Position numbers and translations under genes: made by a program. From Eledone cirrhosa (Eukaryota): 64,000 nucleotides of DNA. The notes below the pieces were generated by a model. That model saw only the letters and a list, made by a program, of their open reading frames with translations. It was not told the DNA's origin and did no database searches. The stretch covers positions 6,014,001 through 6,078,000 of the forward strand of contig OZ024750.1 in the NCBI GenBank assembly GCA_964016885.1, written 5' to 3'. Positions 30,901-32,776 of this stretch are shown piece by piece. The first letter of the stretch is position 1, and each line of letters opens with the position of its first letter.

Positions 30901-30950
30901 AGAGACGTAAAATAAGAAAATTATAAAATTAACTTACTTACTAAAATATC

Positions 30951-31032
30951 ACTTCCAACTAATTAGTTTCTGGAATGGAGTAGATACATCTTCCGAAGAA
31001 GGTGTTGAGAAACATCCCGTCATCAGGAAAGT
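30951..31032 (-). ncRNA. Type I hammerhead ribozyme (mirror copy)
   Basis: Reverse complement of 31705-31786. Confidence 0.8.
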
Positions 31033-31704
31033 CAATTCTGATATAAGTTTCCAGGCAAAGCGAGGACACTGGAAGCTTATTAAAAAAATAAATCAGTGAA
31101 TGGGAAATAGCAAAGCGTGGACTTAATTCCTAGCCATTGAGAAAATCACTGCCTCTGTGTCCGTGGCAAATTCAAAAAGAATCGAACACGTGACGGGATG
31201 TTTCTCTACACCTTCTTCGGAAGATGTATCTACTCCATTCCAGAAACTAATTAGTTGGAAGTGATATTTTAGTAAGTAAGTTTAATTTTATAATTTTCTT
31301 ATTTTACGTCTCTTATATTATTGTTCTGCAACCCCATGCATTGAACCACAATGTTATTAAGATAAAACCTATATATTTGCTAGCATCGATATGCATCTGT
31401 ATGTATATATATGTTACTAGATATGAATTCTTTATTATTATCTCCAAATCGTTTGTCGAGCAATACTGGCCATGACTGCTGCTACAGTAGTAGGCTGGCC
31501 GCTGTCTTATTAACAACCCACTTTCCACCGATTGACCTCGATGTCACGTGTTCGATTCTTTTTGAATTTGCCACGGACACAGAGGCAGTGATTTTCTCAA
31601 TGGCTAGGAATTAAGTCCACGCTTTGCTATTTCCCATTCACTGATTTATTTTTTTAATAAGCTTCCAGTGTCCTCGCTTTGCCTGGAAACTTATATGAGA
31701 ATTG

Positions 31705-31786
31705 ACTTTCCTGATGACGGGATGTTTCTCAACACCTTCTTCGGAAGATGTATCTACTCCATTCCAGAAACTAATTAGTTGGAAGT
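31705..31786 (+). ncRNA. Type I hammerhead ribozyme with extended helix II (cUUCGg cap)
   Basis: ACTTTC-CTGATGA-CGGGATG...CTTC TTCG GAAG...CATTCCA-GAAA-CTAATTAG-TT/GGAAGT; helix III ACTAATTAGT is a perfect palindrome. Confidence 0.83.
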
Positions 31787-32776
31787 GATATTTTAGTAAG
31801 TAAGTTAATTGTATAATTTTCTTATTTTACGTCTCTTATATTATTGTTCTGCAACCCCATGCATTGAACCACAATGTTATTAAGACAAAACCTATATATT
31901 TGCTAGCATCGATATGCATTTGTATGTATATATATGTTACTAGATATGAATTCTTTATTATGTATATATATATATGTATATATATATATGTATATGTATA
32001 TATATATATATGTATATATATATATGTATATATATATATATATGTATATATATATATGTATATATATATATATATGTATATATATACATATATATATATC
32101 TATATATGTATGAATATGTATATATATATAGAGAGAGACCTAAACCACATCCTCAACGCTCTAATGTCTCTACAAAATCGACGGCCTTGATATCTATCTA
32201 TCTATCTATCTATCTATCTATCTATCTATCTATCTCTCTATCTCTCTCTCTATATATGTGTGTGTATGTGTGTGCGTGTTTACGTGAGTGTATGTGTGTA
32301 TGTATGCGTGTGTGAATTTGTAACGTAAAGTGGAGTCGTAGGCGTGCTATAGTGACATATGAAGTGACCTTTCCAGGTCTGAAAAAAGCCGATTTCTTTT
32401 GTGTGTGTGTGTGAGAGAGAGAGAGAGAGAGAGAGAGAGAGAGAGAGAGAGAGAGAGAGAGAGAGAGAGAGAGAGAGAGAGAGAGAGAGAGAGAAAATGA
32501 AAAAGAGGAAATGAAAGAGAGATATAGAGGAAGAATGCACCCCATTGTGAGACTGGTACATTGTTTATGAGATGGTAAGCTGACCACAGCGGAATTTCAA
32601 CATAAACCAGGAGAGCCGAAACAAATACGGCAAAGCATTCTATCCAGCATTCTAAACAACTCTGACAATTCGCTGCCTATGTCAGTTGCAAATATACACA
32701 CATGTATAGACAAACAAGAATCAGTCCAAGAACACACCCAACACAAATATTTCATTTTTAAGCACTTTAAGGCATT

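Follow-up and report, generated by a model that had tools for sequence, protein, structure and literature searches.

Reverse transcription of an RNA circle by enzymes of Penelope-like elements (PLEs) is a proposal made for the retrozymes of metazoans (PMC7229834; bioRxiv 10.64898/2026.07.22.740005). Two reports count against a circle. The Poseidon reverse transcriptase (RT) used uncleaved RNA in vitro and ignored hammerhead mutations (PMC11167929), and eight of nine frog retrozyme dimers did not cleave (bioRxiv 2026.07.22.740005). In the Poseidon reaction both strands of an AT-rich target were cut and extended, and a dimer was predicted (PMC11167929). The tail of PLEs is called optional or 'often at one end' and has been ascribed to endonuclease resolution or self-priming (PMC8557442, PMC3846280). 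The insertion described here bears on how animal retrozymes re-enter the genome and on the origin of the inverted repeats and one-ended tails of PLEs.

The window, i.e. the whole stretch of 64,000 nucleotides that was analysed, contains a two-armed insertion in a (TA)n tract. Unit positions are counted from 31191 (position 1), and the predicted cut lies between positions 66 and 67. The insertion is composed as follows:

30341..30900, no strand: (TA)n target microsatellite, left flank (TRF array)
30896..31194, minus strand: S (short-start) arm, 299 nt, unit positions 353-524 followed by 1-128
30951..31032, minus strand: the S arm's complete type I hammerhead, with the cut predicted at 30957/30956 (mirror of 31705-31786)
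31191..31194, no strand: TGAC microhomology uniting the 5' ends of both arms
31191..31961, plus strand: L (long-start) arm, 771 nt, a full unit followed by positions 1-248
31191..31262, plus strand: 5'-truncated hammerhead, predicted to be inactive, lacking the 5' strand of stem I and C3-A6
31207..31207 (also 31731), plus strand: unit position 17, variable between copies of one insertion
31257..31780, plus strand: cut-to-cut monomer, 524 nt, 36% GC, structured
31323..31346 (second copy 31846-31869), plus strand: near-invariant hairpin with AC-rich loop, directly 3' of the S site
31543..31550, plus strand: conserved GTCACGTG, a possible part of an internal promoter, present in 17/18 units and presumably E-box-like
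31705..31786, plus strand: complete type I hammerhead, predicted cut 31780/31781, stem I extension 31689-31801
31959..32129, no strand: (TA)n target microsatellite, right flank (TRF array)

At this locus S lies on the left (30896) and L on the right (31961). The 3' end of the S arm is located 62 nt and that of the L arm 182 nt beyond the predicted cut. The direct repeat described in the earlier note was recovered, 31191-31438 matching 31715-31961 by 98% over 248 nt, with a spacing of 524 that turns into 523 after a 1-nt indel near 31282. The inverted segment is likewise real: positions 30896-31194 match 31543-31841 by 99% over 299 nt, but the length of 294 nt given previously omits 5 nt that are also compatible with the (TA)n flank. 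No credible open reading frame (ORF) exists, as had been stated; the longest one starting with ATG comprises 67 codons, even if the unit is read round. One hammerhead per unit, as had been suggested, holds for the family, while the locus itself has one complete hammerhead on each strand and no tandem pair. Because the first hammerhead of the plus strand begins within the core and lacks the 5' strand of stem I, the locus could not be cut twice to release a monomer, and this copy probably supplies no further monomers.

The complete hammerhead of the plus strand is made up of stem I (31705-31710/31781-31786), CUGAUGA (31711-31717), a long two-part stem II (31719-31724/31760-31765) with a C.A mismatch at its base, GAAA (31767-31770) and a palindromic stem III, the triplet GUU preceding the predicted cut. 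A scan with Rfam at the gathering threshold reported no hammerhead in the window. The 131-nt hammerhead region alone folded no better than shuffled sequences (z -0.22), and the hammerhead fold is less favourable than the local MFE by 3.8 kcal/mol. The hammerhead is supported by covariation. In an alignment of 18 units its pairs were kept in 93.8% of 483 cells (slid controls, 32-50%), with 32 two-sided changes against 0/500 shuffles. The second pair of stem II alone occurs as C-G in eight, U-A in five, G-C in four and A-U in one of these units. Helices outside the ribozyme covary as well (98.1% paired, 39 two-sided cells), figures that are favourable by construction since the structure was derived from the same alignment. 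The 524-nt monomer folds better than 40 shuffles (z -3.8), with 55-56% of its bases paired. The hairpin at 31323..31346 is paired in 98.6% of cells and shows no two-sided change; it is a candidate protein-binding site, and a motif resembling it occurs in an unrelated 459-nt family. From the whole-length conservation together with the covarying helices, it appears that the entire unit is selected as RNA. A splice-like GTAAGT follows the hammerhead; pairing of the stem I extension explains this motif equally well.

The unit belongs to a dispersed non-coding family of the 3.0-Gb genome. Its closest relatives have a period of 522, with 146 matches in the 40 candidates that were scored out of 2,225, so that chance fails as an explanation, and so does a local duplication, the objection foreseen in the earlier note. 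Genomic multimers of the same period, which had been named as a check, were found with up to nine units. Exact matches to the stem III motif number 12,847 genome-wide, and 2,407 of them carry the extension of this clade (reversed controls, 0). Eighteen cut-to-cut units of 522-571 nt could be aligned over their whole length with a mean column identity of 79%, and subfamilies differ at 46 polymorphic positions. The family is multicopy and dispersed, has a GC content under 50% and comprises tandem units with a complete type I hammerhead. The unit has no protein-coding capacity, and an LTR-type layout is absent, judging from the seamless tandem units. By these sequence features the family resembles a metazoan non-LTR retrozyme. 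In the longest array (L201, 328-5178; G000:C1:170797500-170803200), the L arm is composed of nine near-identical units and faces an S arm of 127 nt; units 2 and 5 have an identical change at unit position 420. With 4,879 nt, this arm lies far outside the distribution of arm lengths. Elsewhere, insertions into (TA)n beside older relatives or PLE ends form nested clusters (L031, L138, L008, L043, L126). Other hammerhead tandem families, with periods of 459 and 511, were seen in L092 (6510-7419) and L101 (8063 and 8574); the unrelated 459-nt family and our unit have a TTGTTC...GAACCACAA hairpin in common.

The 3' ends of the family are located at unit position 128 (S) or at about 248 (L), 120 nt apart. 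All of them abut (TA)n, 3-5 nt fitting both the unit and the repeat, and the exact junction patterns occur 321 (S) and 266 (L) times in the genome. The first 100 S and 91 L ends of contigs 1-2 yielded 46 neighbours within 6 kb, 42 of which were arranged head-to-head. Each of these 42 coordinate pairs combined one S with one L end (2e-13 if ends were drawn independently). The same combination was found in 76/76 resolved two-armed insertions among the fetched loci, a set that overlaps the 42 pairs, and in 13/13 resolved loci of diverged subfamilies, where two more were unresolved; of the other fetched loci, 7 had one unresolved end, 46 were single arms and 1 was complex. In at least seven loci (L046, L047, L051, L064, L065, L139, L142) neither arm contains the other, and thus each arm must be a cDNA of its own and neither a fold-back of the other. 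The formerly proposed 1.5 rounds of copying plus an inversion have to give way to two separately primed arms, one from S (30896) and one from L (31961). By BLAST ends, 52 of 83 inverted junctions overlap by 1-16 nt, while 15 are blunt and 16 contain inserts. As the 5' ends are in addition scattered round the unit, the TGAC join is an ordinary microhomology; it does fit both arms as had been noted, yet its overlap with the ribozyme core is incidental.

For palindromic junctions of PLEs, self-priming or fold-back has been proposed (PMC3846280). An inverted arm produced in this way on an antisense template, or at the DNA level, after a single priming would account for the haplotype and rare alleles common to both arms (see below) and agrees with the overlaps of 10-16 nt at some junctions. 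We regard this origin as very improbable: both outer ends lie at fixed start sites of the sense strand, always one S and one L, disjoint arms exist, and unit position 17 differs between arms of the same register as often as elsewhere.

The genome contains 10,595 candidates for GIY-YIG, of which 150 were scored. Fetched PLE loci revealed RT plus GIY-YIG frames of up to 938 and 1,096 aa, whose Cys motif, compared without a tree, is like that described for Neptune/Nematis (PMC8557442). In a young ORF-bearing PLE family, the hammerhead is of the minimal U3-A8 type and the two ends lie 68 nt from each other in (TA)n. Among 82 short and 100 long ends of this family, 32 of 33 head-to-head pairs were mixed. 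This PLE family thus pairs short and long ends without need for a circle, which counts against the circle, and the inverted arm is no evidence for one. With mixed-end pairing in both families, the retrozyme carries the footprint of a PLE, whose traits, an inverted copy, a tail at one end and a microsatellite target, are all present. The earlier note had linked a metazoan retrozyme with Penelope; the retrozyme-like family and the Penelope footprint were both found, while similarity to a partner element was not found in 40 loci. These 40 GIY-YIG loci, taken from the 150 listed of 10,595, disclosed no PLE terminal repeat homologous to the unit by blastn and nhmmer. The proteins of two PLEs gave no tblastn match in the 64-kb window, and the unit has no ORF for RT or GIY-YIG. 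Two pieces homologous to the unit in PLE loci (L088, L098) proved to be separate insertions bounded by (TA)n. It would be surprising if the unit were the terminal repeat (pLTR) of an unfound autonomous PLE and the insertions its truncated copies, a reading to which we assign very little probability. Its target, ends and inverted layout are as in PLEs, frog retrozymes resemble pLTRs (bioRxiv 2026.07.22.740005), and the loci covered are 40 of 10,595; against it, arms run seamlessly from unit to unit, no aligned locus passes from the unit into a common non-unit body, the pieces in L088 and L098 are separate insertions, and the whole unit is conserved across subfamilies of 522-571 nt.

Several other elements were seen in the window. 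At 22099-22508 a two-armed hammerhead element of another family lies in (TA)n, with hammerheads at 22158 (-) and 22381 (+), its left arm ending short and its right arm long. A third family at 47037-47447 is inverted head-to-head in (TA)n with unequal ends and has a CUGAUGA...GAAA motif near 47260. A short insertion in (TA)n at 49087-49206 (-) possesses a type I hammerhead at 49178, and 7315-7489 (-) is what remains of a PLE terminal repeat, its U3-A8 minimal hammerhead lying at 7356. At 53780-53922 (-) there is a tRNA-like match (Rfam, 29.7 bits), probably a SINE head; the repeat is also present at 49474-49582 and in L109. Tandem repeats comprise four copies of 84 nt (99%) at 43331-43667 and two of 143 nt at 46401-46688.

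Arms and units of one insertion share the subfamily haplotype. L019, L021 and L030 were dropped as duplicates, and arms below 86% identity were left out too; allele tests exclude loci with neighbouring separate insertions (L023, L026, L028, L052, L058, L135, L146, L207) and the long arrays L029, L049 and L201, and length tests exclude L001-L030, which had been picked as best matches. Fifty-one rare alleles were common within insertions, 38 of them between opposite arms. Divergence amounted to 1.47% between tandem units, to 1.25% between arms in the same register and to 1.36% in other registers; by these figures, gene conversion between arms is not dominant, though it may have occurred. The predicted cut site was passed seamlessly by 131/161 arms, and twice by 30. 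Eleven alleles absent from all other sampled loci occur in every unit of their own insertion (13,393 columns). The seamless passage and these alleles speak for a circle.

These observations have to be weighed against a linear template, a reading that retains insertion from two ends by a PLE enzyme and takes as template a mostly uncleaved multimer transcribed from the rarer long arrays; we consider it possible but rather unlikely. It is at odds with the eleven unique all-unit alleles and with the many sub-lineages, each homogeneous across its units. Moreover, arms that can accommodate two complete hammerheads are a minority (30/161 pass the cut twice); given the fixed 3' starts, linear copying alone would be expected to shorten arrays in each generation. 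DNA-level duplication or template switching would then have to regenerate the arrays, with the hammerhead merely trimming transcripts, which we find similarly doubtful. In its favour, the long arrays L029 and L049 reveal a nested sharing of mutations that fits DNA-level duplication, the near-homogeneous nine-unit array L201 could serve as a master, and in vitro it was mainly uncleaved RNA that served as substrate (PMC11167929). Of the rare alleles in 3,604 informative columns, four were confined to one register of both arms against six common to all; because of these four, which suit a linear template, a single circle is insufficient unless gene conversion or coincidence is invoked.

The 5' ends bear on the same question. 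They showed no pile-up at one start site and no common boundary, which argues against a linear template. A sharp run-off at the cut (67) was not seen, the ends being spread over 63-86. In the interval 67-86, chosen after seeing the ends, they were in excess (18 against 9.1, p = 0.006), five of them after a full unit. This excess is compatible with linear RNA that has been cleaved or with a stall in stem I, and it counts weakly against a circle. Ends were also in excess at 107-126 (12 against 5.8). The truncation rate rises approximately 2.6-fold past one unit length in both arms: for S arms it goes from 0.20 to 0.52 per 100 nt (54/26,561 against 30/5,747 nt, p = 9e-5), for L arms from 0.24 to 0.63 per 100 nt (53/22,465 against 22/3,481, p = 3e-4). 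Such a step is as expected if the RT meets its own cDNA. 'Same length' beats 'same RNA position' by only 1.3 log-likelihood units, in a test in which 11 loci had been picked as pairs and were mostly long.

At the predicted ligation site (unit positions 66-68), 9/221 differences were counted against 3.2 expected (p = 0.005), beside a DNA palindrome, which gives a weak hint at best of an error mark. An A-to-I scar was not relied on: alleles common to every segment included 13 A>G against 6 T>C (p = 0.03, uncorrected, 24 tests), private alleles 31 A>G against 32 T>C. Three sequencing runs of one sample behave as genomic contigs, with variants of the family and TA loose ends at 31318 and 31438; they may stem from the source sample and were not counted as support. 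A product of divergent RT-PCR would be ambiguous, since the unit junction is alike in tandem DNA copies and in a circle. Taken together, the genomic data favour a circle, though with mixed signals, and we lean towards a circular main template. The thousands of copies allow a statistical test of circle versus line.

Unit position 17, located at the edge of the internal loop of stem II, differs within 21 of 65 multi-covered insertions, compared with 309/21,533 columns elsewhere (1.4%). All four bases occur there; at this locus T is present at 31207, and A at 31731 and in the S arm. Inheritance of these variants by register was rejected, as same-register arms differ as often (12/38) as others (23/89). 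The differences are also flat across locus ages (7/22, 6/22 and 10/24). Being equal across registers and ages, they fit an error made at each copying pass. The simplest reading would be that the RT errs on each pass at a nucleotide that is modified or strained, though a hot spot at the DNA level is also conceivable.

Overall, the data are best read as a PLE-driven, two-armed insertion of a hammerhead repeat, with a self-cleaved, re-ligated circle of about 522 nt as its moderately favoured source. The family would work like a non-autonomous PLE. A PLE RT-endonuclease would cut the (TA)n tract and, at each of the two broken ends, prime a cDNA on one and the same RNA, and the two arms would then be joined at their 5' ends by microhomology. 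That a PLE protein acts in trans is very probable. It is likely, with somewhat less assurance, that an asymmetric and perhaps dimeric enzyme primes both ends on a single RNA through UAU microhomology with the TA primer. Cleavage and ligation by the hammerhead may well provide the template and regenerate copies of more than one unit, which we think slightly the better guess. In its most complete form the model has a PLE dimer bound asymmetrically to a single circular ribozyme RNA; from two fixed sites that lie 120 nt from each other, the dimer would prime both ends of the double-strand break, travel round the circle twice over, stall after one lap and miscopy one modified or strained nucleotide at each pass. 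This is offered tentatively and falls short of being probable. For the existing assay of PLE enzymes in vitro, the model predicts S and L starts on opposite strands, a stall after one unit and the error at unit position 17. If it is true, the genome preserves a trace of how an animal retrozyme is reverse-transcribed by rolling circle, and the inverted repeats and tails of PLEs are products of one reaction.

Compared with metazoan non-LTR retrozymes (PMC7229834; bioRxiv 2026.07.22.740005), the family likewise consists of non-coding tandem units of low GC content, every one with a single type I hammerhead, has a palindromic stem III and coexists with PLEs. The mismatch at the base of stem II is found as well in axolotl HHR_Amex2. 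The unit is longer than the 150-450 nt of PMC7229834 but lies inside the range of 51-972 nt given in bioRxiv 2026.07.22.740005. It differs from the retrozymes described there by dispersed, head-to-head arms of 1-2 units with fixed S and L ends, by its two-part stem II, and by the lack of detectable homology to a PLE pLTR in 40 loci. Non-autonomous elements of the Chlamys type, e.g. MRC1 (PMC8557442, PMC9977147), are similarly non-coding, PLE-dependent and multicopy, and lie head-to-tail in microsatellites. Unlike this family, they resemble their partners at the 3' end, and the Chlamys clade is without canonical hammerheads.

In the literature searched (openly readable papers, preprint supplements aside), we found no cephalopod retrozyme and, in the portions available, no strict rule of one end of each kind. 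The element class and the link to PLEs are already in print. Endonuclease-bearing PLEs (PMC8557442, PMC3846280, PMC4209133) provide close parallels: truncated copies head-to-head with a tail at only one end, (TA)n targets, 5' joins by microhomology, and a hammerhead upstream of the 3' ends with an extra base after A9. In contrast to them, our unit has no ORF, its tail measures 120 nt instead of 30-40, and the near-strict rule of one end of each kind departs from a merely optional tail. In Poseidon of Anolis carolinensis (PMC11167929), as in this family, the RT starts internally at two sites that bound the tail and lie downstream of the hammerhead, and an AC-rich stem-loop is located near the RT start. 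There, the strands showed no difference in start site, nor did the start share homology with the target; here, the template is a non-coding unit, each side uses a different site, and S and L share 3-5 nt with (TA)n.
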